DNA of 64,000 nt from Actinomycetota bacterium (GCA_009885805.1 VFJZ01000007.1:10059-74058), one strand, 5' to 3'. Positions 32,151-57,177 are shown, counted from the first letter of the stretch. Numbers and translations: made by a program. Notes: generated from the letters alone by a model not told the origin.

Positions 32151-32179
32151 GATCCGGTGGCAACGCCAGGGAGGGCACC

Positions 32180-32404: not shown

Positions 32405-32428
32405 GGCGCGCCGCTAACGTCGTCGGCC

Positions 32429-32912: not shown

Positions 32913-32953
32913 TATCGCGTACAGCGCGCCCGTTCGACCCCAAGGAGCCTCTC

Positions 32954-33385: not shown

Positions 33386-33392
33386 CGCCCCC

Positions 33393-37919: not shown

Positions 37920-38407
37920 GCGGTGCCCGGCACATGGTGCGGATGGCCGAGCAGGTGGTGTCGAGCGACCCCACCGACATGCTCGTCTCGCTCGGCCTCG
38001 GGTCGTGCATCGGTCTGGCCATCGTCGACGAGGGAGCGCGCGTGGCCGGTCTCGTCCACATCGTGCTGCCGAAGGCGCCGGCGGGAGTCAACGGCGCCCT
38101 CGCCCCGAAGTTCGCCGACTTGGCCGTACCGAAGCTGCTCGAGGACGTGATGGCGGCCGGCGGACGGAGCGGCAACCTGCGCGCCGTCCTGTGCGGCGGC
38201 GCCCACATGTTCGGGAATGCCGGCACCAATCCGATCATGCAGATCGGCAGCCGGAATGCCGCTGCGACGATGGAGATGCTGCAGAAGCTCCGCATCCGCG
38301 TCCGCGCGCACGACACCGGGGGCAGCTCGGGCCGGTCGATCGAGGTTCGCGTCGCCACCGGCGAGGTCTACGTCCGCGGTGTCGGGCAGCAGCCGAGGCA
38401 GCTGTAG
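37916..38407 (+). CDS. cheD: chemoreceptor glutamine deamidase CheD
   Basis: ATG at 37916 (ATGA overlap). LGLGSCIGLAIVDEGARVAGLVHIVLP. Confidence 0.85.
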   Translation: MSGARHMVRMAEQVVSSDPTDMLVSLGLGSCIGLAIVDEGARVAGLVHIVLPKAPAGVNGALAPKFADLAVPKLLEDVMAAGGRSGNLRAVLCGGAHMFGNAGTNPIMQIGSRNAAATMEMLQKLRIRVRAHDTGGSSGRSIEVRVATGEVYVRGVGQQPRQL

Positions 38408-38410
38408 GGC

Positions 38411-38599
38411 ATGGGCGACGAGATCCTCTCCCAGAGCGCGATCGACGCGCTGCTCGCGTCGCTGGCGGCCGCAGACGAGCCGGCCGCCGCGGCCCAAACG
38501 CCCGTGGACCCGGAGTCCGACGAGCCGTCGCCGCCCGGCGGCAGGCGGAGGGCCCTGGCTGTGACCGGCGATGACCAGCAGGCGGAGGACGCCGCCTAG
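38411..38599 (+). CDS. 62-aa mini-ORF carrying a FliM-type N-terminal LSQSxIDALL peptide
   Basis: MGDEILSQSAIDALLASL followed by an acidic/Pro-rich tail. Same reading frame as fliM, separated from it by TAG (38597-38599) plus 9 nt. Translation is unproven. Confidence 0.4.
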   Translation: MGDEILSQSAIDALLASLAAADEPAAAAQTPVDPESDEPSPPGGRRRALAVTGDDQQAEDAA

Positions 38600-38608
38600 G
38601 CGGTTCGC

Positions 38609-39631
38609 GTGGCACACGGCAACGACACCCTCTCGCAGTCCGAGATCGACGCGCTGCTCGCGGTGGTCGCCAGCGAACCGTCCCTAGCTGGATCCGGCGA
38701 GTCGCACACGAGCGTGCGCGTCCAGGCGATGGACTTCCGGCGTCCGTCGAAGTTCAACAAGGACCAGCTGCGGACGCTCGAGATGCTGCACGACACGTTC
38801 GCGCGGCTCGCCGCGACGTACCTGTCGGGCGCGCTGCGCTCCGTTGCCGACATCTCGGTGCTCGGAGCCGAGCAGGTCACCTACGGCGAGTTCATCTCGT
38901 CCCTGCCGGTACCCGCCTTCACGAACATCCTCCAGCTCGACCCGCTCGGCACCAACGCGATCCTGGCGCTTGATTTGCCGCTCATCTTCTCGATGATCGA
39001 CCGCCTCCTCGGCGGGCCGGGACAGGGCGCGACGCGGCTCCGCGAGCTGACCGACATCGAGATGTCGCTGTCGCGGACGGTCATGAACCGGATGCTGGCG
39101 GAGCTGTCGACGTCGTGGTCGGAGCTGGTCGGCGTCGATTTCAGTCTCCGCCACACCGAGATGAACCCCCAGTTCGCGCAGATCGCGCCGCCGACCGAGC
39201 TGTCGGTGCTCCTGTCCTTCCAGATCCGGCTCGGCGACTCCACCGGTGTGATGACGCTGTGCCTACCGTGGCGGTCGATCGAGTCGGTCGCGCCGAGCCT
39301 GACCGCAAGCTCCTACTTCTCCGGCCAGCGCACCGGCGCCGAGATCCTCGATCTCCGGCCGCCGCTCGACGACGTCACGATCGGTGTGCGCGCCGAGGTC
39401 GGCGCGGTCGAGCTGACGATCGACGAGGTGCTGTCGCTGCGCGAGGGTGACGTCGTGCGTCTCGGTGTGCCCGTCGATCGACCCCTCGTCCTCTACGCCG
39501 GCAACACGCCGACGTACCACGTCGTTCCCGGCACGCACCGGCGTCAGCTCGCCGTGCAGGTCCACGACCGCGTGCCCCGGCCGCACCATGACGCGGTCGA
39601 GGCGGAGCCGGTCGCGGAGGAGGCACCGTGA
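38609..39631 (+). CDS. fliM: flagellar motor switch protein FliM
   Basis: GTG start. 340 aa. N-terminal TLSQSEIDALL (CheY-P-binding peptide), then MDFRRPSKFNKDQLRTLEMLHDTFAR, then the C-terminal SpoA-like domain. Confidence 0.9.
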   Translation: MAHGNDTLSQSEIDALLAVVASEPSLAGSGESHTSVRVQAMDFRRPSKFNKDQLRTLEMLHDTFARLAATYLSGALRSVADISVLGAEQVTYGEFISSLPVPAFTNILQLDPLGTNAILALDLPLIFSMIDRLLGGPGQGATRLRELTDIEMSLSRTVMNRMLAELSTSWSELVGVDFSLRHTEMNPQFAQIAPPTELSVLLSFQIRLGDSTGVMTLCLPWRSIESVAPSLTASSYFSGQRTGAEILDLRPPLDDVTIGVRAEVGAVELTIDEVLSLREGDVVRLGVPVDRPLVLYAGNTPTYHVVPGTHRRQLAVQVHDRVPRPHHDAVEAEPVAEEAP

Positions 39632-41136
39632 ACGCGGCCGATGCCGTCGCGCGCGCGGTGACCCTGAACGCGGCCGCCTGCGCCCGCGTGATCGGGACCC
39701 TGTACGGCCAGCCCGGCTCGTTCGGCGAGGTCGTCGTCGAGGAGACGCCCGACAACACGTGGGAGGCGTTCACATTCCCGCTCGTCTGCGTCCGGATCCA
39801 CTGGATCGAGGGCATTACTGGCGAGAACATGTTCGTCCTCACACCGGAGCAGGCGCGGCACCTCGCGACGGCGATGATGGGCATGGCCGACTCCGACGCC
39901 GAGGGCGAGCTGAACGACATCGAGATGTCCGCGGTGTCCGAGGCGATGAACCAGATGATGGGCTCAGTCGCGACGGCCATGGCCGAGGCGCTGGGCCTGA
40001 CGACCGACATCGCGACCCCGACCACGATCATCCTCAAGAGCCGCGAAGAGGCGGAGGCCCTGAGCGAGGCGCGTTATGCCGCCAAATTCACCGTTACCGC
40101 GGGCAGCCTGGACGCGACGATTGTGCAAGTCATTCCACTGGAGTTCGCGGCGATGCTGGAGACGGCGTTCACGACGGCTGAAGTCGCGGACGAGGTTCTC
40201 GGCGGGATGCACTCGGAGAAGATCGGCCGCCTCAACGACGACACCTACTCGGCCGTCGAACGAACGGCGCGGATCGCCGCGGAGTCGTCCGCCGACGTGC
40301 TGACGACCCTGCTCGGCGTGAAGGTGACGGCGACGCTGCCGGAGATCGAGACGGCGCCGAAGGATCCGCTCGCGGAGCTGGCATACCCGCTGGTGACGGT
40401 CGAGGTCTCGTACGTGTCCGGCGTGAACGGCGCCAACCTGTTCGCCCTCACGCCCGCACAGGCCGCCACCTTAGCGGCCGTGATGATGGGCTCGGATGAG
40501 CCTCTCGGCGACGGGCTGTCGGACCTCGAGCTGTCGGCAGTCTCCGAGGCCATGAACCAGATGATGGGCGCGGCGACGAACATCCTCGCCGACACCCTGT
40601 CGCTCGAGATCGAAGTCGCGCCGCCGATCTGCGTCGTCATCCAGAACGTCGAGGAGGCGCGCGCGACGTTCGAGCACCCGGCCTACTGCTCGCGGTTCCG
40701 GATCGTCTCGGACAAGCTCACCGCCGACGTCGTGCAGCTCGTACCGGCCGATTTTGCACTGCATCTCCAGGCAGCGTTCGCGGCTGCCGAGGCGGCCCGG
40801 TCGATCGGTGCCGAGGCCGCTGCGCCCTCGCAGACGGACTCGTCCGCAACCGCCAATGCCGCGGCCGCGCAGACCCCGACGGGCGCCGTCAGTGTCGCCG
40901 CGCTGCGAACGGTCGGCGTGCGCTTCTCCGCGGAACTCGGGCGCGCCAGGATCGACATCGCCAGCGCCATGAACCTTCCCCCGGGCGCGATCGTCGAACT
41001 CGATCGAATGCCCGACGACCCGATTGACGTGCTCGTCAACGGGCGCGCCTTTGAGCGCGCCAGGCTCGTGCTCGTGGATGGCGAGTATGCCGTCCAGATC
41101 GTCTCGCTCGATCCCCCGAAGCTGCTGGCAGGCTGA
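39628..41136 (+). CDS. fliY: flagellar motor switch phosphatase FliY (two CheC-like units + FliN/SpoA domain)
   Basis: 502 aa. SAVSEAMNQMMG-x-P (S-x3-E-x2-N-x22-P) occurs twice, about 200 aa apart. C-terminal FliN domain (VRFSAELGRARIDIASAMNLPPGAIVELDR ... VLVNGRAFERARLV). GTGA overlap with fliM. Confidence 0.85.
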   Translation: MNAADAVARAVTLNAAACARVIGTLYGQPGSFGEVVVEETPDNTWEAFTFPLVCVRIHWIEGITGENMFVLTPEQARHLATAMMGMADSDAEGELNDIEMSAVSEAMNQMMGSVATAMAEALGLTTDIATPTTIILKSREEAEALSEARYAAKFTVTAGSLDATIVQVIPLEFAAMLETAFTTAEVADEVLGGMHSEKIGRLNDDTYSAVERTARIAAESSADVLTTLLGVKVTATLPEIETAPKDPLAELAYPLVTVEVSYVSGVNGANLFALTPAQAATLAAVMMGSDEPLGDGLSDLELSAVSEAMNQMMGAATNILADTLSLEIEVAPPICVVIQNVEEARATFEHPAYCSRFRIVSDKLTADVVQLVPADFALHLQAAFAAAEAARSIGAEAAAPSQTDSSATANAAAAQTPTGAVSVAALRTVGVRFSAELGRARIDIASAMNLPPGAIVELDRMPDDPIDVLVNGRAFERARLVLVDGEYAVQIVSLDPPKLLAG

Positions 41137-41158
41137 AACACCCCTAGGAGGTGCCAGA

Positions 41159-41518
41159 ATGGCTCGTATTCTCGTAGTAGACGACGCGGCGTTCATGCGG
41201 ATGATGGTGAGCAACATCCTCACGCAGAACGGGCATGAGGTCGTTGGCGAGGCCGAGAACGGCGCGCAGGCAGTCACGAAGTACGCCGAACTGAAGCCCG
41301 ACGTGACGACGATGGACATCACGATGCCCGAGCAGGACGGCATCGCAGCGCTGAAGGCGATCCTCGCGAACGATCCGGCGGCGAAGATCGTGATGTGCTC
41401 GGCACTCGGCCAGGAGGCCAAGGTGATCGAGTCGATCCGCTCCGGCGCGAAGGACTTCGTCGTCAAGCCGTTCCAGCAGGATCGCGTGCTGTCGGCGGTC
41501 GCGAAGGCGCTCGGCTAG
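41159..41518 (+). CDS. cheY: chemotaxis response regulator CheY
   Basis: aggagg RBS. MARILVVDDAAFMRMM ... DVTTMDITMPEQDG ... KDFVVKPF. Confidence 0.9.
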   Translation: MARILVVDDAAFMRMMVSNILTQNGHEVVGEAENGAQAVTKYAELKPDVTTMDITMPEQDGIAALKAILANDPAAKIVMCSALGQEAKVIESIRSGAKDFVVKPFQQDRVLSAVAKALG

Positions 41519-41674
41519 TGGTGCGACACGGAAATGGCGCGGTGTCCGGAGGCCCCTGGATCGCGGATCACTCGCCCGCCGCTTGGACTTGCTCCGGCAA
41601 GCCCTGCGCGACGGGCGGAGCGTCCCGCTCGCGGAAGGCTCCTCGACCACAACACCATTTCCGTGTCGAACCAC
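41518..41674. repeat. 157-bp element bounded by 22-bp inverted repeats (full copy)
   Basis: The left end gtggtgcgacacggaaatggcg matches the reverse complement of the right end (gtggttcgacacggaaatggtg) at 20 of 22 positions. The interior carries nested palindromes (cgcccg...cgggcg; cttgc-tccg-gcaag). Begins at the last base of the cheY stop codon. Confidence 0.65.
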
Positions 41675-41815
41675 TAGGGACGTCCGCGCGAAGCCGTTCG
41701 ACCGCTCGACCGTCCGTTCTGCACTCCTGACCGTCAGCCGGCCTGCGGTCGAAGCGCTGACCGCATCGCCGTCACGCTGCGGCGACCGTCTGCTGCGCCG
41801 CCGCGGGCTTCGCGG

Positions 41816-41922
41816 GTGACCCGCCCGCCGCTTGCACTTGCTCCGGCAAGCCCTGCGCGACGGGCGAGCCTCCCGCTCGCTCCAGGAATCTCGACCACAA
41901 CGCCATTGCCGTGTCGAACCAC
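41816..41922. repeat. second, left-truncated copy of the same element (about 107 bp, roughly 90% identical by eye to 41567-41674)
   Basis: cgcccgccgcttgCacttgctccggcaagccctgcgcgacgggcg ... tcgaccacaacGccattGccgtgtcgaaccac aligns base for base with the first copy. No left inverted repeat is present. Confidence 0.65.
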
Positions 41923-41933
41923 CAGCACCGCGA

Positions 41934-41968
41934 GGTGGAACGAAGGAGCCTGGCCCCTTCGTTCCACC
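41934..41968 (+). terminator. 13-bp perfect stem / 9-nt loop hairpin
   Basis: ggtggaacgaagg (41934-41946) pairs with ccttcgttccacc (41956-41968). No U-tract. Confidence 0.45.
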
Positions 41969-42032: not shown

Positions 42033-43112
42033 ATGACCCTGGCAGCACACATGCCGGTTCGGCTCGCTCTCGTCGGCGCGGGCTACTGGGGCGTGAAACT
42101 GGCGCGCAACATCGCCGACTCGCCGCACACCGAGCTGACGGCGATCTGCGACGCGGACGCCGTCCGGCTGGCGGCGGCCGTCCGGCGACACCCCGGCGCC
42201 GTCGCGGCCGGCCTGTTCGCCGACCTGCTGACCGAGGTCGACGTGGATGGCGTTGTCCTCGCGACGCCACCGTGCGATCACGCCTGGCAGGCCGAGGCGG
42301 CACTGCGGGCGGGGCTGCACGTGCTCGTCGAGAAGCCGCTCGCACTGTCGACAAAGGACGCCGATCGACTCTGCGCGCTCGCCGACAGCCAGCGGCGGAC
42401 GCTGATGACTGGACACACCTTCCTCTTCTCGGAACCGGTGCGGGTCCTGCGCGGCCTGATCGAGCGTGGCGAGCTCGGTCGCATCCTCTACCTGTCGGGG
42501 CAGCGCCTGCACCTGGGCGCGTTCCGACTCGACCACTCGGCGCTCTGGGACCTCGGTCCGCACGACGTCTCGATCATCTCGTACCTGCTCGGCGCGGCGC
42601 CGTTTGCCGTCGCATGCCGCCAGTTCTCGCTGATCGGCGCGCCCGTCGAGGACGTCGCCTTCGTGACGCTGGAGTACCCAGGCGGCGTCGTCGCCCAGTT
42701 CCAGAACTCGCGCCTCGATCCGCGGAAGGTTCGTCAGCTCACCGTCGTCGGCGACCGCAAGATGGCCGTCTACGACGACACCGACCCGGAGTGGCCGATC
42801 CGCGTGTACGACAAGGGCGTCGAGCGAGCCGAGCTGCCGATGAGCGTCGACGACGTCGAGGATGGCTTCGGCCAGTTCAAGTTCGAGGTCCGCAGCGGTG
42901 ACGTGTGGGCCCCGAAGGTCCGTGCGCGCGAACCGCTCCGCGAGGAGATCGACCACTTCGCGGCATGCGTGCTGAACGGCACGCGTCCGATCGCGGACGG
43001 CCCGGCCGGCCGCGACGTCGTGGCGGTGCTCGAGGCCGCCGAGCGATCGGCTGCCGACGGCGGGCGCCGTGTCGACGTGGAGGGCCGCCTTGTCGCGCAT
43101 ACGGCTGCTTGA
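42033..43112 (+). CDS. Gfo/Idh/MocA-family NAD-dependent sugar dehydrogenase
   Basis: VRLALVGAGYWG Rossmann motif and the EKPLALS motif. Start is ATG 42033 (42003 and 42051 are alternatives). Confidence 0.8.
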   Translation: MTLAAHMPVRLALVGAGYWGVKLARNIADSPHTELTAICDADAVRLAAAVRRHPGAVAAGLFADLLTEVDVDGVVLATPPCDHAWQAEAALRAGLHVLVEKPLALSTKDADRLCALADSQRRTLMTGHTFLFSEPVRVLRGLIERGELGRILYLSGQRLHLGAFRLDHSALWDLGPHDVSIISYLLGAAPFAVACRQFSLIGAPVEDVAFVTLEYPGGVVAQFQNSRLDPRKVRQLTVVGDRKMAVYDDTDPEWPIRVYDKGVERAELPMSVDDVEDGFGQFKFEVRSGDVWAPKVRAREPLREEIDHFAACVLNGTRPIADGPAGRDVVAVLEAAERSAADGGRRVDVEGRLVAHTAA

Positions 43113-44217
43113 TCTCGATCGTCAGCACCGCGACCTCGCCGCCGACCTCGACTCCGCGATCGCCGCCGTGATCGCGAGCGGGCGGTTCGTCGACGGACCG
43201 GCGATCGAGGCGTTCGAGCACGAGTTCGCGCTGTTCTGCATGGCGCGCCACTGTGTCGGCACCTCCAGCGGGACGTCGGCGCTGGCGCTCGCCCTGCGCG
43301 CCGCCGGCATCGGCGCCGGCGCCGAGGTGATCACGTCAGCGATGACGTTCATCGCGACGGCGGGCGCGATCGTCGAGGCTGGTGCGACGCCCGTCCTCGT
43401 CGACCCCGACCTCGACACCGGCCTGATCTCACCGGCGGCTGCGTCTGCCGCGATCTCCTCCAGGACGCGCGCGATCGTGCCGGTGCACCTCTGGGGGCAG
43501 CCGGTCGACCTGGCAGGCTTCAGGGCGGTCTGCGACCGGCATCGGCTGTTCCTGCTGGAAGACGCCTGCCAGGCGCACGGTGCCTGGGCGGGCGGCCTGC
43601 GAGCCGGGAGCGTCGGCGACGCCGCCGCCTTCTCGTTCTATCCGGGCAAGAACCTGGGCGCGATCGGCGACGCGGGCGGCGTGGTCACCTCCGACGGCGC
43701 CCTCGCAACGCGCCTGAGGGCGCTGCGCGATCATGGTCGAACCGGCCACACGGAGCACGCCATCGCCGGCACCAACGCCCGCATGGCGGCGATCCAGGCT
43801 GCAGTGCTGTCGGTCAAGTTGCCCCACGTCGAGCGCTGGAACGGCCGCCGACGGCAGACGGCGGCGCTGTACGACGCGGCGCTCGCCGACGTCGCCGGCG
43901 TGACGCCGATCGGTCGCCGCCCGGATGCCGTGTCGGCGAACCATCACTACGTCGTGCGGTGCGACGACCGGGCCGCGGTCGCCGATCACCTCGCGGCCCG
44001 ATCGATCGCGAGCGGTGTCCACTATCCGGTCCCGCTGCACCAGCACCCGGCGCTGGCGGGCGTCGTGGTTCCGGCGGGCCCGTTGCCGGTCGCCGAGCGT
44101 CTCGCCCGGGAGGTCCTGTCGGTGCCGGTCCACCAGGACCTCGCGCCCGCAGACGCCGAGCAGGTGATCGACGCGCTGGTCACGGCCGCGGCCGCCGCCG
44201 TGAAGCGGGCGGCGTGA
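43069..44217 (+). CDS. DegT/DnrJ/EryC1-family PLP-dependent sugar aminotransferase
   Basis: LDLDRQHRDL ..., FVDGPAIEAFEHEF, and FSFYPGKNLGAIGDAGG (PLP lysine context). The start may be TTG 43090. Confidence 0.85.
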   Translation: MSTWRAALSRIRLLDLDRQHRDLAADLDSAIAAVIASGRFVDGPAIEAFEHEFALFCMARHCVGTSSGTSALALALRAAGIGAGAEVITSAMTFIATAGAIVEAGATPVLVDPDLDTGLISPAAASAAISSRTRAIVPVHLWGQPVDLAGFRAVCDRHRLFLLEDACQAHGAWAGGLRAGSVGDAAAFSFYPGKNLGAIGDAGGVVTSDGALATRLRALRDHGRTGHTEHAIAGTNARMAAIQAAVLSVKLPHVERWNGRRRQTAALYDAALADVAGVTPIGRRPDAVSANHHYVVRCDDRAAVADHLAARSIASGVHYPVPLHQHPALAGVVVPAGPLPVAERLAREVLSVPVHQDLAPADAEQVIDALVTAAAAAVKRAA

Positions 44218-45122
44218 TGGACGAGCGGCTGGCGGGCGCTCCGGACGAGGCGGTGGTGCGTCGGCGATACCGGCAACTGCGGGCGATTCGACGCTTCGAG
44301 GAGCGTGTGCTGGCGGCGTTCGACGACGGCGTCCTGACCGGGACGACGCATGCCTGCGTCGGGCAGGAAGCCAACGCCGTCGCGATCGCCGAGGCGCTCG
44401 GTGACGACGATCACGTGTTCTCGAATCACCGCTGCCACGGCCACTACCTCGCGCGAACCTGGGACGTCGCCGGGCTCTGGGGCGAGCTGACCGGGCGACC
44501 CGACGGCGTCTGCGGCGGCGTCGGCGGCAGCCAGCACCTGTCTGCACCGGGCTTCCGCTCGAACGGCGTCCAGGGCGGTATCGTGCCGGCGGCGGCGGGC
44601 ATCGCGCTGTCGCGGGCCCTGAGCGGGCGCGACGGCCTGTCGGTCGTCTTCTGCGGCGACGGTACCTTCGGCGAGGGCGTGGTCTACGAGACGCTCAACA
44701 TCGCCGCCCTCTGGCGTCTACCGCTCCTGGTCGTGGTGGAGGACAACGGCTGGGCACAGTCGACGCCGGCCGCGCTGAACCGGGCGGGAGATCTGCCGGC
44801 GCGGATCGCGGCGTTCGGGATCCCGGTCGATGACGTCGACTCGACGGACGTCGAGATTCTCGCGACCGCGTCGGCCCGCGCCGTCGCGACGACGCGAGCA
44901 GGCGGTCCGGCAGCGCTGGTGATCCGGACCTACCGCCTCTGCCACCACTCGAAGAACGACGACGCCCGTCCCGCCGACGAGGTGTCGGCGCGCTGGGCGT
45001 TCGATCCGGTCGCGATCCAGGCCGGACGGCTCGACGGCGCGGCGCGCCTCCAGATCGACGGTGAGGTCGAGGCGGCGCTCGCCGAGACGATGGGCTCCGT
45101 ACCGGCAGCGGTGGCCGCATGA
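44217..45122 (+). CDS. thiamine-diphosphate-dependent 2-oxoacid dehydrogenase E1 alpha subunit
   Basis: ATG at 44217 overlaps the upstream stop. RAIRRFEERV ... HACVGQEA ... and the TPP motif CGDGTFGEGVVYETLNIAALWRLPLLVVVEDNGWA. Confidence 0.85.
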   Translation: MDERLAGAPDEAVVRRRYRQLRAIRRFEERVLAAFDDGVLTGTTHACVGQEANAVAIAEALGDDDHVFSNHRCHGHYLARTWDVAGLWGELTGRPDGVCGGVGGSQHLSAPGFRSNGVQGGIVPAAAGIALSRALSGRDGLSVVFCGDGTFGEGVVYETLNIAALWRLPLLVVVEDNGWAQSTPAALNRAGDLPARIAAFGIPVDDVDSTDVEILATASARAVATTRAGGPAALVIRTYRLCHHSKNDDARPADEVSARWAFDPVAIQAGRLDGAARLQIDGEVEAALAETMGSVPAAVAA

Positions 45123-46129
45123 TCTACGCGCGCGCCCTGGGAGCGGCCCTGCATGACTGCCTTGCCCGCGACCCGCGGGTCGTCCTGCTCGGCGAGGACA
45201 TCGCCGACCCGTACGGTGGCGCGTTCAAGGTGACGCGTGGGCTGTCGACCGCGTTCGGCGAGCGGGTGCGGACGACGCCGATCTCCGAGGCGGCAGTCGC
45301 CGGCATCGCCGCCGGGCTGGCACTGGACGGCATGCGACCGATCGCCGAGGTGATGTTCGGCGACTTCATCACGCTCTGCGCGGACCAGCTCGTCAACCAC
45401 ATCGCGAAGTACCGCGGGATGTACGGCGTCGACACGAGCTGCCCCGTCATCGTCCGCACGCCGATGGGTGGTGGCCGTGGCTACGGCCCGACCCACTCGC
45501 AGTCGCTGGAGAAGCATCTCCTCGGAGTACCCGGTCTGCAGGTCGTCGCTGCCTCGCCCTTCGAACACCCCGCGGCGATCTACGATCGCCTGCTCGCGCA
45601 GGACGATCCGGCCGTGGTGATCGAGCACAAGCTGCTGTACGGCCACGAGGCGATCGAGCCGGGAGCTAGCCGCGTCGGGCCGCTGCGGCTGCGCTACGAG
45701 GGCGGAGTCGACGGCTGGCCCGTTGCCGTCCTCGCCCCGGTGCCGCGTGAGCAGTGCCGGGTGACCGTGGTCGCGTACGGCTGGCAGGCAGAGGGGGCGC
45801 GCGCGGTCGTCGAGCGGCTCGCCGTCGACGACGAGCTGTTCTGCGAGCTCCTCTGCCCGCTGCGACTGTCGCCCCTCGATCTGACGGCCGTGATCGCGTC
45901 GGTTGCAGCGACGGGGGCGTTGGTCACGGTGGAGGAGGGGACGCGGGGCTTCGGCTTCGGCTCCGAGGTCGCCGCCGGTGTGGCACACGCGCTCCACGGA
46001 CGCCTGCGGCGACCGACAGTCCGCGTCTCTTCCGACGACGGCGTCGTCCCGGGAGCGCGTGCACTCGAGCGCGCGATGCTTGTCGCGGCGGCCGACGTCG
46101 TCGCTGCGGTCCGGGCGGTGGCGGCATGA
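45119..46129 (+). CDS. 2-oxoacid dehydrogenase E1 beta subunit (transketolase-like)
   Basis: 336 aa. LLGEDIADPYGGAFKVTRGL ... RTPISEAAVAGIAAG ... RTPMGGGRGYGPTHSQS. Confidence 0.85.
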   Translation: MIYARALGAALHDCLARDPRVVLLGEDIADPYGGAFKVTRGLSTAFGERVRTTPISEAAVAGIAAGLALDGMRPIAEVMFGDFITLCADQLVNHIAKYRGMYGVDTSCPVIVRTPMGGGRGYGPTHSQSLEKHLLGVPGLQVVAASPFEHPAAIYDRLLAQDDPAVVIEHKLLYGHEAIEPGASRVGPLRLRYEGGVDGWPVAVLAPVPREQCRVTVVAYGWQAEGARAVVERLAVDDELFCELLCPLRLSPLDLTAVIASVAATGALVTVEEGTRGFGFGSEVAAGVAHALHGRLRRPTVRVSSDDGVVPGARALERAMLVAAADVVAAVRAVAA

Positions 46130-47223
46130 TCGAGGTGCGCATCCCGGTCAGCGACGTCAACTCGCGAAGCGCCGTGATCGTGGCCTGGCACGCGGCCGAC
46201 CTGGCGGCGGTCGCGGCCGGCGACCTGATCTGCGAGGCGGAGACCACGAAGGCGGTGGTCGAGGTGCGCGCCCCCGTCGCGGGGATCCTGCGACGGCTGA
46301 CGACCACCGATGCACGCGTCGACCTCGCCGATCCGGTGGCGGTCGTGGCCCCAGATCTTGCCGCTGCCAGGGCCTTCAGCCCGGCGGCGGCCGACGCGAC
46401 GAGCGGGATCGGCGCGACCGCGACGCGCGCGGCGATCGCGCTCGCCGGGCAGCTCGGCGTCGATCTGGCCGGCATCGCCGCCGACGGGCTCGTCACGGCG
46501 GCGATGGTCGCCGAGGCCGCACGATCGGGGTCGCGCCCCGACCTCCTCGACCCGCTCGTCGCGCCGCCGGGAGCCCGGCGCGTCGTGATCGTCGGCGCCG
46601 GTCTCGGTGCAACGCAGGTGGCCGACATCCTCGACCACCACGACGATCTGGCGCCCATCGCCGTCCTCGATGACGATCCCGGCCGTTGGGGCGCCGAGGT
46701 CGCCGGCCTCCCCGTCGTCGGTGGTGTGCAGCGCGTCGCCGAGCTGAGCGGCGCCTTCGACGCGGCGATCATTGCCATCTCCAGCTCGGTCGGCGCACGC
46801 GCCGCGCTGCGCGCGCGCCTGCAGTCGGTCGGCCTGCCGCTCGTGAGCGCGATCGACCCGACCGTCCGCGTCGCCCGCGGAGCGACGGTCGGCGACGGTT
46901 GCGTGATCTGCGCGTTCTCGCATCTCGGCGTCGAGTCCCGCGTCGGTGCGAACACGTTTCTGTCGGCGTACACGTCGATCGACCACCACTCCGTCGTCGG
47001 CGCCGACTGCTCGGGCGGTCCCGGCTGTATGACGTCGGGCTGCGTCACGATCGGTGATCGCGTTCGGCTCGGCACTGGCATCTTCGTCCAGCCGCTCGTC
47101 ACGATCGGCGACGACGCGATGATCGCGTCGGGCGCGATCGTGACGGAGCACGTCCCGGCCGGGTATGCCGTCAAGACGCGGATCGCCGCCACCGTCATCG
47201 TCGCGCCGCGGAGGGCGGCGTGA
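46126..47223 (+). CDS. chimeric E2-like protein: lipoyl domain + PSBD-like segment + PglD/NeuD-type hexapeptide sugar N-acyltransferase
   Basis: Residues 1-76 form a lipoyl-type domain (GDLICEAETTKAVVEVRAPVAGIL; Lys42 codon at 46249-46251). Then ATRAAIALAGQLGVDLAGIAADGLVTAAMV, which resembles an E3/E1-binding domain. Then VVIVGAGLGATQVADIL ... VLDDDP ... SIDHHSVVG plus left-handed beta-helix repeats, in place of an E2 catalytic core. Confidence 0.8.
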   Translation: MIEVRIPVSDVNSRSAVIVAWHAADLAAVAAGDLICEAETTKAVVEVRAPVAGILRRLTTTDARVDLADPVAVVAPDLAAARAFSPAAADATSGIGATATRAAIALAGQLGVDLAGIAADGLVTAAMVAEAARSGSRPDLLDPLVAPPGARRVVIVGAGLGATQVADILDHHDDLAPIAVLDDDPGRWGAEVAGLPVVGGVQRVAELSGAFDAAIIAISSSVGARAALRARLQSVGLPLVSAIDPTVRVARGATVGDGCVICAFSHLGVESRVGANTFLSAYTSIDHHSVVGADCSGGPGCMTSGCVTIGDRVRLGTGIFVQPLVTIGDDAMIASGAIVTEHVPAGYAVKTRIAATVIVAPRRAA

Positions 47224-47936
47224 GCGAGTCGTCGCGCCTCGAGGACGTTGCGACCCGGTACTCGGGGCACGACGGGTTCGACGCAGTCCTCGTCCGCTAC
47301 TCCGTCGGCCGTCTCCTCCGGCAGATGCCGCGCGGTGCCTGCCTCGAACTGGGCCCGGCCGATGGCGCCTCGACTGCGATCCTGGCCCGCGAGTACGGCA
47401 CGATCGCCTGCGTCGAGGGATCGCCGACGCTCGCGGCCGCCCTCCGCGCCCGGCTCGGGGAGCGGGTCTCGGTCACCTGCTCGCTGTTCGAGGACTTTGC
47501 TTCCGCCGACCGTTTCGACGCGATCTACGCGATCCAGGTACTCGAGCACCTCGCCGATCCGGTTGGCGTCCTGCGCCGCGCCGGCGACTGGTTGGCTGCT
47601 GACGGACGGATCGCGATCTCCGTCCCCAATGCCGCCTCGCTGCATCGCCTGCTCGGGGTCGAGATGGGTCTGCTGGCGTCGGCCGACGGCCTGACGGCGC
47701 GCGACCACGACCTCGGCCACCGGCGCGTCTACACCAGGGCGCTCCTCGACGAGCACCTGTGCGAGGCCGGCCTCGATGTCCTCTGGCGCGGCTCGTCATT
47801 CCTCAAGCCGCTCTCCAACAGCCAACTCGAGGAACTGGCGGACGACCAGCTGTACGACGCCCTCGACCGTCTGGTGGACGGCTTTCCCGACCACGGCGCC
47901 GACCTCCTCGTCGTCGCACAACGAAGGAAGACATGA
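47220..47936 (+). CDS. class I SAM-dependent methyltransferase
   Basis: GTG start overlapping the previous stop. CLELGPADG motif I; FDAIYAIQVLEHL. Confidence 0.8.
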   Translation: MSESSRLEDVATRYSGHDGFDAVLVRYSVGRLLRQMPRGACLELGPADGASTAILAREYGTIACVEGSPTLAAALRARLGERVSVTCSLFEDFASADRFDAIYAIQVLEHLADPVGVLRRAGDWLAADGRIAISVPNAASLHRLLGVEMGLLASADGLTARDHDLGHRRVYTRALLDEHLCEAGLDVLWRGSSFLKPLSNSQLEELADDQLYDALDRLVDGFPDHGADLLVVAQRRKT

Positions 47937-49084
47937 CCGCAACGCGCATTCCCGTCGCCCGCCCGCCGATCGATCCGGCCGATCTCGAGGCTCTCCGTCC
48001 CGCCTTCGAGTCGGGCTGGATCACGATGGGTCCTGCGGTTCAGGAGTTCGAGGCCGCCGTCGCGAAGGTCGCGGGAGCGGACGCCGTCGCGACGACATCG
48101 GCGACCTCGGCCATGCATCTCGCGCTCCTCGCCTGGGGCATCGGGCCGGGCGACGAGGTGATCGTGCCGGCCTACACGTTCGTGGCATCGGCGCACGCCG
48201 TCGCCCAGACGGGCGCGACGCCGGTCTTCTGCGACGTCGATCCCGGCACCCTCAACATCGACGCCGCGTCTGCAGCGGCAGCCGTGACCGAGCGGACGCG
48301 GGCGATCATGGCCGTGCACCTGTTCGGGACGCCGGCGCCGATGGCTGCCCTCCGCGCTATCTGCCGCGAGCACGAGCTGTGGCTACTCGAGGATGCCGCC
48401 TGCGCGCTCGGTTCGACGCTCGACGGGACGCCCTGCGGCGCCCTCGGCGACGCCGCCGCGTTCTCGTTCCATCCCCGGAAGGTGATCACGACCGGTGAAG
48501 GTGGGATGCTGACCAGCGGCGACGCCGACCTGCTCACCCGCGCCCGCGCCCAGCGCAACCACGGTGCGGAGATGAGCGCGTTCGACCGGCATCAGCTCGG
48601 CATCGGCGTCTATCCGACCTTCGATCTGCTCGGCTTCAACTACCGCCTGACGGACATCCAGGCGCGACTGGGACTCGCGCAGATGGCGCGGCTCGACTCG
48701 ATCCTCGCCGAGCGTCGACGCCAGGCGGAGCACTACTTCGACGCGCTCGCTGGGGTCGACGGCCTCGGCTTGCCGGCGCTGCCGGCCGGCGCCACCAGCT
48801 GCTGGCAGAGCTTCGCCGTCCAGGTGCGCGGCCGGTCGCGCGCCGCCGTCCAGGCGCACCTCGCCGCCGGCGGTGTGTCGGCTGTCGAGTCGTGTCAGCT
48901 GGTCCCGGCGCTCGGCTACTACGCGACCCGCTCCGGTTACGTCGCCGGAGCGTTCCCGGCCGCCGAGGCGCTTGCCCGAAATGCACTGTCGATCCCGCTC
49001 TACGTCGGGCTCGCCGAGGCGGACCAGGAGCGAGTCGTCGCTCTCCTCACCGAGGCGATGGCGTCCGTGGCGGTGGCGGCATGA
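47933..49084 (+). CDS. DegT/DnrJ/EryC1-family sugar aminotransferase (second copy)
   Basis: ATG at 47933 (gaaggaag RBS, ATGA overlap). IPVARPPIDPADLEALRPAFESGWITMGP ... FSFHPRKVITTGEGGM. Confidence 0.85.
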   Translation: MTATRIPVARPPIDPADLEALRPAFESGWITMGPAVQEFEAAVAKVAGADAVATTSATSAMHLALLAWGIGPGDEVIVPAYTFVASAHAVAQTGATPVFCDVDPGTLNIDAASAAAAVTERTRAIMAVHLFGTPAPMAALRAICREHELWLLEDAACALGSTLDGTPCGALGDAAAFSFHPRKVITTGEGGMLTSGDADLLTRARAQRNHGAEMSAFDRHQLGIGVYPTFDLLGFNYRLTDIQARLGLAQMARLDSILAERRRQAEHYFDALAGVDGLGLPALPAGATSCWQSFAVQVRGRSRAAVQAHLAAGGVSAVESCQLVPALGYYATRSGYVAGAFPAAEALARNALSIPLYVGLAEADQERVVALLTEAMASVAVAA

Positions 49085-50019
49085 AGGTCGCGATCTGCGG
49101 AGCGCTCGGGTTCGTCGGCACGCGCGTCGCGCGCGACCTGGCCGCGGCCGGGCACGAGCCGCTCCTGCTCGACGTGGCCCCGCGCTCGCCGCACCCGCTC
49201 GCCGAGACGCTCCTGCGGCGGCACGAGTTCCGTCGCTGCGACCTCACCGACCCGATGTCGACGCGAATCGCCCTGGCCGGTGCCGACGCCGTCTTCCACG
49301 CCGCCGCGCTCGGCGCCAAGGTCGAGCGTGACCGCCCGTGGGAGACGGCGCATCTCAACCTGATGGGCGCCGTCAACGTCCTCGAGTCGGCTCGCCGCGA
49401 GCAGGTCTCCCGTTTCGTGTTCGCGTCGTCGGCGGTCGTCTACGGTGACCGTTTCGGAACGACGGCCGTCGCCGAGAGCGACCCGCGCCCGCCCGCGACG
49501 ACGATTTACGCCGCGACCAAGGCGGCAGGCGAGGACCTCGTTGCCGCCTACGGCGCCCAGTTCGGTCTCAGCGGCCTCTGCCTTCGCTTCATGAACGTCT
49601 ACGGGTTCCAGCCGGCGACGATGGTGCAGCGTGAGTTGACCGCGCGGGTGCTCGAGCGCGTCGAGGCCGGCGAGCCGCCCCTGATCTTCGGCGACGGCTC
49701 AGCAGCATTCGACTTCGTCCACGTCGACGACGTAGCGCGGGCGGTCTGCTCCGCGCTGACCGCCGACGCGACGGGGACCCTCAACGTGGGCACGGGGTCG
49801 GCGACGACCGTGCGCGACCTGGTCGAACTCGTGCTCCGCGAGACGGGCTCGGGGCTCGCTCCGGAGTACCGGCCGGGAGGCGCGTCGCCGACGACGCTGC
49901 GCGCCGACACCGCTGCCGCCGACGCTGCCCTCGGCTTCAGGGCGGCGATCACGTTGCCGGAGGGCATCCGGCAGACGATCGCCGAGTTCCGCAACGCGGC
50001 GGAGCCGTGCGCCGCCTGA
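49081..50019 (+). CDS. NAD-dependent nucleotide-sugar epimerase/dehydratase (extended SDR)
   Basis: MKVAICGALGFVGTRVARDL and YAATK catalytic motif. ATGA overlap. Confidence 0.85.
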   Translation: MKVAICGALGFVGTRVARDLAAAGHEPLLLDVAPRSPHPLAETLLRRHEFRRCDLTDPMSTRIALAGADAVFHAAALGAKVERDRPWETAHLNLMGAVNVLESARREQVSRFVFASSAVVYGDRFGTTAVAESDPRPPATTIYAATKAAGEDLVAAYGAQFGLSGLCLRFMNVYGFQPATMVQRELTARVLERVEAGEPPLIFGDGSAAFDFVHVDDVARAVCSALTADATGTLNVGTGSATTVRDLVELVLRETGSGLAPEYRPGGASPTTLRADTAAADAALGFRAAITLPEGIRQTIAEFRNAAEPCAA

Positions 50020-50020: not shown

Positions 50021-50941
50021 ATGTCGCGGATCCTCCTGATCGGCGGCCAGGCCCGCGGCCTTGCACTGTTCGACCTCCTGGTCGAGCGCGGCCGTCCGCC
50101 GCTGCTGGTGCACGCGCTCGCGGAGGATCCCCATGAGCCCCCTGGCCCCGGCGCGGCCCTCCTCACACGCTGCCGGGAGCGGGACATCGCCTGCGTCTCC
50201 GGACGCCGGATCGATGACGATGGGGCCGAGGCGATCGCGGCGATCGCACCGGACCTCGTCTGCGTCTGCGGTTGGCGGACGATGATTCCGATGCGTGCCT
50301 TCGCGAGCGCCGGAGCGGCTGTCGGTGCCCACGACTCCCTGCTGCCGCGTTACCGAGGGTTCGCGCCGAGTGCCTGGGCGCTGATCAACGGTGAGACGCA
50401 GAGTGGGGTGACGCTATTTCACCTCTCGACCGGGATGGACGAGGGTGACATCGTCGGGCAGCGGCAGATTCCGATCGCGCCACGCACCAACGCCGCGGAA
50501 CTCGCTGATGCGGTCGCGACGGCAACGGTCTCGCTCTTCGACGAGTACCTCGACGGTCTGCTCGACGGCACGGCCCCACGGCGCTCGCAGGATCACGCCG
50601 CCGCCACGTATGGCTGTGCTCGCACACCTGACGATGGCGCGATCGACTGGTCACGGCCGACGGTGGAGATCGACCGCCTCGTCCGCGCCCTCTCCGAGCC
50701 GCTGCCCGGCGCGTTCACCTCGCACGACGGCGAGCGTCTGGTGGTCTGGGAGGCCGAGCCGGTCGTGCCGGCGCCGGTGTACGCCGGGCGCGTGGACGGC
50801 CGTGTGGTCGCAGTCCGGCCCGACGGTGCCGTGGACGTGCTGACCGGCGACGGCGTGCTGCGCCTGCTCCGGGTCGGCGCTCCGTCCGGCCGGGCCGCGG
50901 AGCGGATCCGCTCCGTCCGGACGAGGCTCGGCGATGGCTGA
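50021..50941 (+). CDS. formyltransferase (Fmt/ArnA-type; candidate sugar N-formyltransferase)
   Basis: 306 aa. AHDSLLPRYRGFAPSAWALINGETQSGVTLFHLSTGMDEGDIV matches the H-x-SLLP-x-x-RG and D catalytic motifs. Confidence 0.8.
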   Translation: MSRILLIGGQARGLALFDLLVERGRPPLLVHALAEDPHEPPGPGAALLTRCRERDIACVSGRRIDDDGAEAIAAIAPDLVCVCGWRTMIPMRAFASAGAAVGAHDSLLPRYRGFAPSAWALINGETQSGVTLFHLSTGMDEGDIVGQRQIPIAPRTNAAELADAVATATVSLFDEYLDGLLDGTAPRRSQDHAAATYGCARTPDDGAIDWSRPTVEIDRLVRALSEPLPGAFTSHDGERLVVWEAEPVVPAPVYAGRVDGRVVAVRPDGAVDVLTGDGVLRLLRVGAPSGRAAERIRSVRTRLGDG

Positions 50942-52763
50942 TCTCCGCGTCCTGCTGCCCCAGCGTCTCGACATCCAGAGCCGGATGATGGACACGAACG
51001 TCCTCGGCCACTGGCTCGGGCTCGCCGAGGCCTGCGACGTCGTGCTGCACGGGCCCGGCCTCGAGGGCTACGACGACCGCCCGCTCGGCACTGTCGCCCG
51101 TGACGCTGACTGCGACCTGATCCTCCTGCCCGATCTCCATCACGCCATCCCCGGCATCTGGGACGACCTCTGGAGTGGGACGCAGACGACGGGCGTCCCG
51201 GTCTGCTGGTACCTGACGGACTTCGGATCCGAGCTCGCCGCGCGCCGCACCGTGTTCGAGCGTGTGCGGCCGGAACTGGTGCTGATCTCCGGTGATCCGA
51301 GTGCGTACCGGGCGTACGACGATCTGTTCGCGGCAATCGGAGCGCGCCTCGTCGTCGTGCCGCTCGGCTACGACCCGGCCCTCTTTCACCTGCCGCCAGC
51401 GGGCAGCGGCCGCGACATCGACATCCTCGTCGCCGGCGCCGACCGTCCGAGCGACGTGTACCCGACGCGCGGGCCGATGAAGGCGGCCGCGCGCCTGCTG
51501 GCCGGATCCTTCAACGTCGTCGAACTCGACCATCCCGGCTACTGGGAGTGCGACCCGGGGCGCCCGCAGGCCCGTGGGCAGTGCGAGCTCGCGGGTCTGA
51601 TGCGGCGCGCGCGTCTCGTCATCTGCGGCTCGGCGTTCGGCTGCTACGTGCGCAAGTACTACGAGACGGCCGCGTCAGGGGCCGTGCCGGTCGGAGACCT
51701 TCCAGAGCACCCCGACGTCGATCGTTTCCGCGGTGTCAGCGTCGAGATCGCCGCCGGTGCCACGCCTGAGGCGATCGCGGAGACCATCGCGGCGGTGCTC
51801 CGGGACCGGCCAGCCTGCGCGGCGCTCGGTGCCGCCGCTGCGTCGCGCCTCGAGGGAGCCGACCACGCCGCCCGCGGCGAGCAGACGGCGGCCGCGCTCG
51901 CAGCGGCTCTTGACCTGCAGCCACGTCGTCGACGCCCGCGTACGACGCCGCCGCCACCGCCGGCGTTGCTCGTGATCGCGAGCGCAGACCCCGGAGCCGT
52001 GCCCGCCCCTCGCACCGACTGGGTCGACATCTGGCGCGACGAGACATCCATGTCCCGCACGCGCCTGGTCGAGCGGGCGCTCGCCGCGGGCGACGCCGAC
52101 ATCGCGGTGCTCGCCCTCGACCCGGACGCCGCTCTGCCGGCAGATGCCCTGTGGCTCGCGGAGACCGCACGGCGCGCTGGCGGGTGCGTCGTGATCCGCC
52201 CGATGCGGCCGGGGTCGGGGGATCTTGTCGGCGACGGCATCGCGCTCGTCGCCGCACCACGGCGGGCGCTGCTCGCAGCGGTTGCGGGCGAGCGCGGTCG
52301 CGTCGGCCTCGAACGCGCGCTGCTGACGCTCTGCGCCACGTCGGTGCCGGTCGTCCTCGCGGAGCCGGGCGCTGCCGGCGCGGCCGCGGATCTCGCGCTC
52401 GTCGAGGCCGCGATCGGACCGGTGGCGGCGCAGGCAGCCACCGGTGTCGATGGCCCGGTCGGCCCGCCGCAGGACCCCGAGCTGACCGTCTCGCCCGTCG
52501 CGGGCGCGGTGCTCGTCGAGCTCGACCCGACGACGCTCGGTGATCTCGCGCGCCAGGCCGCAACGGGTGTCGCGACGGAGATCGCCGTCCCGGTCGCACT
52601 CGGCCTCTCGCCGGACGAGGCCGCCGACGTCGTCGTCGCGGCGCTCGATCGGGCCGGTGTCGATCTCGATGCGGCCGACCTCGTCCTCCTCGAACGCCCC
52701 CTCCACGCCGCCGAGATCGCCTGGCTGCGGCGCCGCGGTCGCCGTCAGGAGCGGGCGGCGTGA
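50934..52763 (+). CDS. CgeB-like glycosyltransferase domain + roughly 270-aa unrecognised Ala-rich C-terminal region
   Basis: 609 aa. RARLVICGSAFGCYVRKYYETAASGAVPVGD resembles the Glyco_trans_1_2/CgeB family. The C-terminal part has no motif I recognise. Confidence 0.55.
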   Translation: MADLRVLLPQRLDIQSRMMDTNVLGHWLGLAEACDVVLHGPGLEGYDDRPLGTVARDADCDLILLPDLHHAIPGIWDDLWSGTQTTGVPVCWYLTDFGSELAARRTVFERVRPELVLISGDPSAYRAYDDLFAAIGARLVVVPLGYDPALFHLPPAGSGRDIDILVAGADRPSDVYPTRGPMKAAARLLAGSFNVVELDHPGYWECDPGRPQARGQCELAGLMRRARLVICGSAFGCYVRKYYETAASGAVPVGDLPEHPDVDRFRGVSVEIAAGATPEAIAETIAAVLRDRPACAALGAAAASRLEGADHAARGEQTAAALAAALDLQPRRRRPRTTPPPPPALLVIASADPGAVPAPRTDWVDIWRDETSMSRTRLVERALAAGDADIAVLALDPDAALPADALWLAETARRAGGCVVIRPMRPGSGDLVGDGIALVAAPRRALLAAVAGERGRVGLERALLTLCATSVPVVLAEPGAAGAAADLALVEAAIGPVAAQAATGVDGPVGPPQDPELTVSPVAGAVLVELDPTTLGDLARQAATGVATEIAVPVALGLSPDEAADVVVAALDRAGVDLDAADLVLLERPLHAAEIAWLRRRGRRQERAA

Positions 52764-56436: not shown

Positions 56437-56437
56437 C

Positions 56438-57157: not shown

Positions 57158-57177
57158 GTGCTGCGCCGCGGTCGCCG

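Follow-up and report, generated by a model that had tools for sequence, protein, structure and literature searches.

A 64,000-nucleotide stretch of DNA from an Actinomycetota bacterium (GCA_009885805.1, VFJZ01000007.1:10059-74058; hereafter the window), with a base composition of about 71% G+C, carries from about 42.0 kb onwards a series of same-strand genes, most of which overlap their neighbours by 1-4 nucleotides (nt). The series runs from a Gfo/Idh/MocA oxidoreductase and a DegT aminotransferase through an E1 alpha-like subunit, an E1 beta-like subunit and a fusion protein to a methyltransferase, a second DegT protein, an epimerase/dehydratase, an ArnA-type formyltransferase and glycosyltransferases (Table 1). 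The subject of this report is the three-gene module formed by the two E1 subunits, which are thiamine diphosphate enzymes, and the fusion protein, in which a lipoyl domain is joined to a PglD-type sugar N-acyltransferase. Start and stop codons overlap at each junction from the first aminotransferase to the methyltransferase (TGATG 44215-44219, ATGA 45119-45122, ATGA 46126-46129 and GTGA 47220-47223), and the NCBI entries for the three proteins are identical in length to the open reading frames (ORFs) of the window. Judging from the sequence, we consider it somewhat more likely than not that this thiamine/lipoyl machine carries out coenzyme A (CoA)-independent acylation, probably N-glycolylation, of a nucleoside diphosphate (NDP)-amino sugar.

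The N-terminal part of the fusion protein matches Biotin_lipoyl over residues 9-73 (30.2 bits vs. a cut-off of 22.1), its best NCBIfam match is the AcoC model NF011457 (37.6 bits, residues 3-82), and among solved structures it aligns with the lipoyl domains of protein X and E2o. An AlphaFold2 model of the whole protein (predicted local distance difference test score 81) comprises a lipoyl barrel, two middle helices, a Rossmann-like domain and a beta-helix. An earlier note on this DNA had proposed modelling of the first 76 residues as a check; they do model as a lipoyl domain, with Foldseek matches to 2q8i_B, 3crk_C and 1ghj at template modelling (TM) scores of 0.77-0.79 and with about 2 Å root mean square deviation. 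Lys42, the predicted lipoylation site, lies in the hairpin between strands 34-39 and 44-48. The reading of this lysine as lipoyl-like and not biotinyl is borne out, and a biotinyl domain was ruled out: the MKM motif is absent, the best domain matches are to lipoyl domains of E2 and protein X, and the partner genes encode thiamine enzymes, not carboxylases.

The C-terminal half matches PglD_N over residues 152-220 (27 bits vs. a cut-off of 23.4) and reaches 131.5 bits with TIGR03570, under the cut-off of 160.8. Among solved structures it aligns with PerB, VioB, WeeI, PglB-ATD and PglD, and Foldseek superposes it on PerB at a TM score of 0.86. No Pfam match to the 2-oxoacid_dh core (PF00198) was found in the fusion protein, whereas RenI, a protein with a lipoyl domain and a canonical E2 core, does match it. 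The suggestion that a PglD/NeuD-type acyltransferase has replaced the E2 core is upheld by these matches. Residues G157, G161, D182 and R225, which align with the nucleotide ligands of VioB, are conserved. The last 65 residues of the model have low confidence, as might be expected of a trimer interface folded as a monomer.

Between the two parts lies a putative helix-loop-helix (helices at residues 101-110 and 125-134 of the model), which had been described as resembling a peripheral-subunit-binding domain. A family profile supports this resemblance, aligning with six canonical binding domains at an hhalign probability of 96%, but the window protein has no match to Pfam E3_binding, and five of nine homologues score 16-21 bits with it, below the cut-off of 23.7. 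The loop is shortened, with GxGxxGR missing, and the Arg cluster of the segment is replaced by I-A-L in the window protein and thus degenerate here. This segment is the least certain element of the architecture. The profile searches that had been called for thus place Biotin_lipoyl, PglD_N and Hexapep above their cut-offs in the 365-aa product, with E3_binding giving no match.

A homologue search of 5.8 billion proteins recovered over 400 full-length relatives built in the same way, for which NCBI has no other name than 'biotin/lipoyl-containing protein'. With so many full-length homologues from independent sources, and an NCBI call that is also of 365 amino acids (aa), an assembly or frameshift artefact was ruled out. 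An exhaustive profile search of 1.84 billion representatives at 50% identity gave 589 matches at E<=1e-30, and conservation was assessed in about 125 full-length fusions among the best 150 of these. Lys42 is kept in all 120 close homologues and in 123/125 of the distant representatives, His287 in 124/125, and D182 and R225 in 123/125 each. The conserved Asn of type I enzymes, which holds a water molecule bridging to the sugar amine, corresponds to Ser280 in the window protein (Ser in 99 of 125 members, Ala in 16, Asn in 1); a further family-specific change at the active site, in addition to this Ser, is a second His that follows the catalytic one.

We then have 67 loci from a scan of one genome per species. 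Actinobacterial carriers include Micromonosporaceae (Actinoplanes, Dactylosporangium, Micromonospora, Catellatospora and others), Solirubrobacterales, Gaiellaceae, Acidimicrobiia and Streptosporangiaceae; elsewhere the module occurs in Chloroflexota, Alpha- and Deltaproteobacteria, Pirellulaceae, Nitrospinales, Verrucomicrobiota, Thermoanaerobaculum and Thermodesulfobacteriota. At least eight phyla are thus represented (Actinomycetota, Chloroflexota, Pseudomonadota, Planctomycetota, Verrucomicrobiota, Acidobacteriota, Nitrospinota and Thermodesulfobacteriota). Where the flanks are complete (37 loci, at least 9 kb on either side), the genes for E1 alpha and E1 beta lie immediately upstream of the fusion gene, in the order E1 alpha-E1 beta-fusion, in 37/37 cases; a DegT gene is found within 10 kb in 32/37 and a Gfo/Idh/MocA gene similar to that of the window in 16/37. 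Other neighbours are Gfo proteins, epimerases, glycosyltransferases and Wzx or Wzy. Clustering of all neighbouring ORFs of the loci revealed no recurrent canonical E2 core or E3. The E1 alpha-E1 beta-fusion set is a conserved module, not a one-off. The three coupled genes lie where the earlier note had placed them, ATG/stop overlaps included, and the genome search that it had proposed for the fused architecture and its co-occurrence with E1 genes backs their status as a unit through the invariant gene order. At the loci of Catellatospora, Actinoplanes regularis and a Limnocylindria member (L003, L010 and L009) no other cytoplasmic N-acyltransferase is seen near the aminotransferase, and the fusion protein is therefore the only candidate there for N-acylation. 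A catabolic 2-oxoacid or acetoin dehydrogenase unrelated to glycans was rejected, since the neighbourhoods do not fit. Three fragmented loci (L069-L071) from metagenome-assembled genomes look like products of frameshift errors and not like true variants.

Table 1 Features of the three-gene module and its surroundings (positions in the window)
Feature	Position	Strand	Support
E1 alpha-like thiamine-diphosphate subunit, 301 aa	44217-45122	+	Pfam E1_dh 8e-45
E1 beta-like subunit, 336 aa	45119-46129	+	Pfam Transket_pyr 4.5e-30, Transketolase_C 1.4e-17
Fusion protein, 365 aa: lipoyl domain, binding-domain-like segment, PglD_N and left-handed beta-helix acyltransferase	46126-47223	+	
Lipoyl domain, residues 1-76	46126-46353	+	Biotin_lipoyl; Foldseek
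Lys42 codon AAG, predicted lipoylation site (E-T-T-K-A)	46249-46251	+	
Peripheral-subunit-binding-like helix-loop-helix, residues 96-135	46411-46530	+	Family profile; model
PglD_N nucleotide-sugar-binding domain, residues 152-230	46579-46815	+	PglD_N
Left-handed beta-helix acyltransferase, residues ~240-350	46843-47175	+	Hexapep 4.9e-13
Catalytic His287 codon (SIDHH motif)	46984-46986	+	Aligned with PerB His141 and VioB His135
Gfo/Idh/MocA oxidoreductase, probable NDP-sugar 3-dehydrogenase	42033-43112	+	Pfam GFO_IDH_MocA 1.3e-22
DegT-family aminotransferase, C3-aminotransferase type	43069-44217	+	Pfam DegT 2e-109
S-adenosylmethionine-dependent methyltransferase	47220-47936	+	Methyltransf_23 9.6e-15; start overlaps fusion stop (GTGA)
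Second DegT aminotransferase, PseC/ArnB-like	47933-49084	+	Pfam and NCBIfam
NAD-dependent epimerase/dehydratase	49081-50019	+	Pfam
ArnA-type sugar N-formyltransferase	50021-50941	+	Pfam Formyl_trans_N and Formyl_trans_C; NF005414, 186 bits
609-aa protein and two glycosyltransferases (GT2+GT4; GT2), same overlapping series	50934-56436	+	

The E1 subunits of the window carry the thiamine/E1 motifs GDG-x27-EDN, HHS, PISE and THSQS, which are conserved in 58-61 module members; E1 alpha thus has the thiamine/Mg motif and the HS histidine, and E1 beta the pyrimidine-binding Glu and the HSQ histidine. One explanation of the module is that this E1 is a true 2-oxoacid decarboxylase, acting on pyruvate, 2-oxobutyrate, a branched-chain acid or hydroxypyruvate, and that the resulting acyl-lipoyl group (acetyl, propionyl etc.) passes straight to the amino sugar. 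Conservation of the thiamine motif and of the histidines in HS and HSQ is consistent with such an enzyme, the arguments for transfer from lipoyl to amine hold equally for it, and E1 alpha has pyruvate dehydrogenase (PDH) E1 alpha both as its best curated model (TIGR03182, 190 bits) and, in the human protein, as its best solved structure (135 bits). However, the TIGR03182 score is far under the cut-off of 394, and a translated search of plasmid records with E1 alpha points elsewhere. RenH, from the renieramycin cluster, comes first (44% identity, covering 99% of the query), followed by unnamed genes of Nonomuraea, S. cattleya, Streptomyces and Paenibacillus. RenH is a fusion of E1 alpha and E1 beta, with its N-terminal half matching E1 alpha of the window (44% identity, 241 bits) and its C-terminal half matching E1 beta (38% identity, 251 bits). 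The Streptomyces and Paenibacillus matches belong to cassettes of acyl carrier protein (ACP), E1 alpha, E1 beta and E2 within non-ribosomal peptide synthetase/polyketide synthase (NRPS/PKS) clusters, and that of S. cattleya to an E1 alpha-E1 beta-E2 set.

Module and cassettes share features that are missing from a comparison set of four canonical E1 systems, human PDH and a Pyrobaculum E1 beta. In E1 alpha these are the motifs GT(T/V)HxCxGQE, SNHR(C/G)HGH, GGSQH (for GGSMH) and HSKxDDxR; in E1 beta they are an extra Pro in DPYGGAFK, the motif GGxRGYGPTHSQS, an insertion of about 12 residues and a one-residue insertion. The N-terminal half of the fusion protein and the cassette E2s likewise have in common an ETSK lipoyl motif, an N-containing first loop, a one-residue deletion and a binding segment without the GxGxxGR loop. 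The usual lipoyl motif is ETDK, and the canonical E2s fetched for comparison have ET[A/D/E]K. In a neighbour-joining tree of concatenated E1 alpha and E1 beta, module and cassettes stand apart from canonical E1 in 200/200 bootstraps, and the module clade is recovered in 199/200. By these sequence features the E1 subunits and the lipoyl/binding half of the window belong to the NRPS/PKS-cassette (QncN/RenH) subtype and not to the ordinary 2-oxoacid-dehydrogenase kind. The earlier assignment of the two genes as E1 alpha and E1 beta was right as to the thiamine motif (GDG...EDNG), with matches to E1_dh and Transket_pyr, and missed the subtype.

The proteins QncN/L/M are reported to direct a glycolicacyl unit, and a ketose phosphate has been proposed as its source for the homologous SclQ1-4 (PMC6335953). 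Cassettes of this type reportedly form glycolyl-lipoyl by cleavage of a ketose phosphate (PMC6335953). The sizes and order of the module proteins (301, 336 and 365 aa) match the cited description of the Qnc/Scl-type cassette. Since the E1/lipoyl half shares motifs and indels with glycolyl cassettes, a ketose phosphate is, by analogy, more likely to be the donor than pyruvate, 2-oxobutyrate or a branched 2-oxo acid, and glycolyl is the more likely acyl group. The earlier proposal of a 2-oxo acid as acyl source is thereby disfavoured as written. The 2-oxoacid decarboxylase explanation is unlikely in our estimation: besides the low model score, the derived motifs and indels are of the cassette type and not those of PDH, branched-chain 2-oxoacid dehydrogenase or Aco-like E1, and a three-gene bypass would be hard to explain where acetyl-, propionyl- and succinyl-CoA are abundant. 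Pocket residues of PDH and branched-chain enzymes proved an unreliable guide to the donor.

Actinomycetes have E1 alpha proteins of the cassette type in great numbers: with the Streptomyces cassette E1 alpha as query, 4561 proteins reached E<=1e-30 among the candidates scored, all under generic PDH or acetoin-dehydrogenase names. Two further plasmid loci are of related interest. On plasmid pAA2-2b of Thermus thermophilus (L079, 3956-6143), the genes for E1 alpha and E1 beta precede those for a separate 82-aa 'biotin/lipoyl-containing protein' and for a TRAP transporter, and there is no E2 core; this arrangement of E1 and lipoyl protein is likewise non-canonical. On plasmid p1 of Streptomyces fungicidicus (L076, 3983-7525), pdhA, E1 beta and E2 are directly followed by an ACP gene, beside acsA; the E1 is canonical by its motifs although the gene set is ACP-linked.

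The characterised PglD, PerB and VioB enzymes all use acetyl-CoA (PMC9271549). In the fusion family the position of VioB Arg170, a ligand of the CoA phosphate, is Glu or Gln in 123/125 members (98%), as would suit a protein domain docked at the site otherwise taken by the ADP portion of CoA; the position of VioB R189 is variable. K350 is retained and may be the counterpart of VioB Lys206, another CoA-phosphate ligand, and the change at Arg170 is therefore not taken as proof of CoA independence. It might be that the beta-helix domain is still CoA-dependent, either as a substitute E2 core that passes the acyl group from lipoyl to CoA or as an ordinary acyl-CoA N-acyltransferase whose lipoyl part has a tethering or regulatory function. 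Acetyl-CoA use by the characterised enzymes and the conserved K350 would agree with this, as would AcoC, the E2 of acetoin dehydrogenase, in which a lipoyl domain is combined with an alpha/beta hydrolase fold and the product is acetyl-CoA. AcoC is a precedent for a lipoyl domain on a catalytic domain that is not like chloramphenicol acetyltransferase (CAT), and its model is the top NCBIfam match mentioned above, though just the lipoyl part matches the fusion protein. We nevertheless hold continued CoA dependence to be improbable, since the nucleotide-sugar residues of PglD_N and the catalytic His are kept, as expected of a sugar-modifying enzyme, the minimal loci have no second N-acyltransferase to consume an acyl-CoA product, the Arg170 position is altered throughout nearly the whole family, and pure tethering leaves the invariant lipoyl lysine unexplained.

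PDH-like E1 alpha/beta pairs are also known from sugar pathways, as AviB1/AviB2 and Pau11/Pau12, where they take two carbons from central metabolism that are proposed to end up as a C-C branch (PMC4425429). By analogy, the E1 pair of the window might add a two-carbon branch to a keto sugar, which the Gfo/Idh/MocA enzyme could supply, with the fusion protein acting separately. This is very unlikely: no lipoyl partner is described for the Avi and Pau systems, whereas the E1 genes here are always followed directly by the gene for a lipoyl domain whose lysine is invariant, start and stop codons overlapping, and the E1 subtype is that of lipoyl-dependent cassettes.

Set against the systems known, the module is proposed to resemble the Qnc/Scl/Ren cassettes up to the acyl-lipoyl stage and PglD/PerB afterwards. 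With the cassettes it shares the E1 subtype (38-51% identity; GGSQH, HSKxDD, GTTHxC and indels), the ETSK type of lipoyl motif, the shortened binding segment, the gene order E1 alpha-E1 beta-lipoyl protein and, as predicted for the module, a non-CoA acceptor for the lipoyl-borne acyl group. In the cassettes, however, the last part is a canonical 2-oxoacid_dh (CAT-like) core, and the unit is delivered to ACP for peptide or polyketide assembly, whereas the module has a PglD-type N-acyltransferase for that core, no ACP gene and a glycan context. With the type I enzymes PglD, PerB, VioB, PglB-ATD and WeeI, the fusion protein shares the nucleotide-binding domain and beta-helix, the aligned catalytic His and the glycine loop, Asp and Arg. 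These enzymes are stand-alone proteins of about 200 residues that use acetyl-CoA, while the fusion protein has about 150 extra N-terminal residues with a lipoyl arm, and it has Ser for the 'strictly conserved' Asn, Glu or Gln at the position of VioB Arg170 and His-His for His-Asp/Glu/Gly. Finally, like the E2 of pyruvate, 2-oxoglutarate and branched-chain complexes, it has, in this order, a lipoyl domain, a segment resembling a binding domain and a trimer-forming acyltransferase, and is encoded after E1 alpha and E1 beta; it differs from these in having no CAT-like core, a predicted sugar-amine acceptor in place of CoA, ETSK and not ETDK, and no GxGxxGR loop. By sequence, then, the module lacks the CAT-like core and ACP that define one parent family, and departs from the other in its lipoyl arm and altered active-site Asn. 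Precedents exist for a non-CoA acceptor (ACP in Qnc) and for a non-CAT E2 core (AcoC).

The window fusion protein is an outlier of its family. It has 46-52% identity to other members, which average 63% among themselves, and forms its own cluster at 50%; of 92 highly conserved positions it has changed 16, the median being 1, and its binding segment has lost the basic cluster. It is conceivable that the module of this genome is decaying or has been re-purposed, contributing nothing specific to a glycan, and the divergence just described would be in keeping with that. We regard this as most improbable, since the reading frames are intact with their start/stop overlaps, Lys42, His287, His288, Ser280, Gly305 and the E1 catalytic motifs are retained, and the divergence of E1 alpha and E1 beta is nothing unusual (59% and 55% identity on average to other members). 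Because catalytic residues are kept and frames are intact, we read the window protein as a deep-branching, presumably functional member, perhaps with a different acceptor.

The acceptor is suggested by the two genes upstream of the module. The Gfo/Idh/MocA protein (start uncertain, with candidate ATGs at 42003, 42033 and 42051) has UDP-N-acetylglucosamine 3-dehydrogenase as its best NCBIfam model (134 bits, below the cut-off), and the closest solved chains of the adjacent DegT protein are 2oga (which we take to be DesV), QdtB and WbpE, all C3-aminotransferases. The two look like a pair of C3-dehydrogenase and C3-aminotransferase, in agreement with the view that they could make the amino sugar. 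In this they resemble the WbpB/WbpE/WbpD and GnnA/GnnB routes to 3-amino and 3-acetamido sugars, which combine a Gfo/Idh/MocA 3-dehydrogenase with a C3-type DegT; in those routes, by contrast, N-acylation is by acetyl-CoA and a beta-helix enzyme without a lipoyl arm. The adjacent DegT protein thus probably makes the amine to be acylated, and an NDP-3-amino sugar is the most likely acceptor in this window because of the C3-type DegT, the 3-dehydrogenase match of the Gfo protein and the retained nucleotide-binding residues. At some other loci the module stands with a dehydratase-type short-chain dehydrogenase/reductase and DegT, which would yield a 4-amino-6-deoxy sugar.

The sequences show the domain make-up, its conservation, the gene order and the subfamily to which the E1 and lipoyl parts belong. 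For the favoured CoA-independent acylation we infer lipoylation, direct transfer from lipoyl to amine, donor, acyl group and acceptor, and propose the following sequence of events. E1 alpha/beta with thiamine diphosphate would take a two-carbon unit, by cassette homology from a ketose phosphate such as xylulose 5-phosphate, and oxidise it onto lipoyl-Lys42 of the fusion protein to give glycolyl-S-dihydrolipoyl. The binding-like segment may tether E1 and possibly also the housekeeping E3. The lipoyl arm would then swing into the trimeric beta-helix of PglD/PerB type, where the pantetheine arm of acetyl-CoA would otherwise sit, and His287 would deprotonate the amine of the NDP-amino sugar, supplied here by the adjacent Gfo/Idh/MocA 3-dehydrogenase and C3-type DegT, so that the acyl group passes to nitrogen. 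Dihydrolipoyl would be re-oxidised by the housekeeping lipoamide dehydrogenase, and the glycosyltransferases encoded downstream would use the resulting N-acyl (probably N-glycolyl) sugar. The full version of this scheme, an oxygen-independent route in which a C2 unit from a ketose of the pentose phosphate pathway ends as the N-glycolyl group of an NDP-amino sugar with the lipoyl arm replacing CoA and the module borrowed from the glycolyl cassettes of natural-product pathways, is put forward tentatively, as one possibility.

Several points weigh against the proposal, in addition to the acetyl-CoA dependence of the characterised relatives, the retained K350 and the changed positions and lost basic cluster of the window protein. 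The link to QncN and SclQ2 is drawn through RenH/RenI, the cassette architecture and a secondary citation. Identity to the cassettes is just 38-51%, and the substrate could therefore differ. No E3 is encoded near the module, and 5 of the 37 loci with full flanks have no DegT gene within 10 kb. The module family is known here from sequences, synteny and predicted structures. In the literature we found no description of a lipoyl-PglD fusion module, in line with the earlier remark that no characterised example was known; the note would have been refuted by an architecture that was common and already had a different role, and it is indeed widespread, but no published role was found. Two papers do not bear on the module: 'lipoyl' in PMC4875605 means fatty acylation there, and a paper on Actinoplanes exopolysaccharide concerns other clusters.

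If the lipoyl arm does feed the enzyme directly, this would be a new carrier logic for glycan tailoring, a new role of lipoate outside central metabolism and a clear instance of domains swapped between secondary-metabolite and glycan pathways. To our knowledge, the sugar N-acyltransferases of this fold characterised so far all act on acyl-CoA. N-glycolyl groups of the NamH/CMAH type arise by hydroxylation of N-acetyl groups. If true, the proposal would give soil and aquatic bacteria from many phyla a distinct way to N-glycolyl sugars that needs no oxygen, and we know of no bacterial glycan with an N-glycolyl or unusual N-acyl amino sugar made without CoA or oxygen. A predicted consequence is that glycans of flagellin or the cell wall carry an N-acyl, probably glycolyl, group in Actinoplanes, Micromonospora, Dactylosporangium, Chloroflexota and others. 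Being compact (three genes, about 3 kb), the module could serve enzymatic synthesis of N-glycolyl or unusual N-acyl nucleotide sugars, and hundreds of proteins now called 'biotin/lipoyl-containing protein' would gain a specific name.

Downstream of the module, the methyltransferase gene is peculiar to this window, with 0/64 related loci carrying one; it might methylate the acyl hydroxyl or the sugar. Methyltransferases also occur as RenJ, beside RenI, and as one gene of the Paenibacillus cassette. The second DegT protein together with the formyltransferase would explain a separate N-formyl group. The 609-aa protein (50934-52763) has no Pfam family at E<=1e-4. Glycosyltransferase genes continue as far as the window reaches, among them those for a 1208-aa GT2+GT4+GT4 protein (58545-62171) and, from 62215, a GT2-tetratricopeptide repeat protein, and no flippase, polymerase or ABC exporter was seen in the downstream part of the window. 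Upstream lie flagellar genes identified by Pfam (FlgG-like rod protein, 27623-28426; FlgK, 29279-30736) and chemotaxis and motor genes read from translations (CheW, CheB, CheA, FliM, FliN-like and CheY). These upstream genes, with glycosyltransferases and no exporter downstream, suggest that the sugar operon is a flagellin glycosylation island; no flagellin gene was identified in 27623-41518 or 50934-64000.

Many of the carriers are Micromonosporaceae (L010, L016, L017, L021-L023, L025-L027, L031, L032, L035, L043, L045, L049, L054-L057, L060 and L065), a family in which the muramic acid of peptidoglycan is N-glycolylated. The overlap may be coincidence; the module adjoins sugar aminotransferases, not murein genes. 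Sulfotransferase genes stand beside the module in an uncultured bacterium (L004, 16424-21134) and in the Limnocylindria locus (L009, 16062-17093), which suggests sulfated glycans there.

In the window, the stretch that separates the cheY-like gene from the sugar operon (41515-41968) is repetitive. It has no Rfam match, and a 20-nt core occurs three times in it vs. 0 expected. The region contains two direct copies of a unit of about 117 nt (41561-41677 and 41810-41925, 83-93% identical), a partial copy of 30 nt in inverted orientation (41515-41544) and, at 41934-41968, a near-perfect hairpin.

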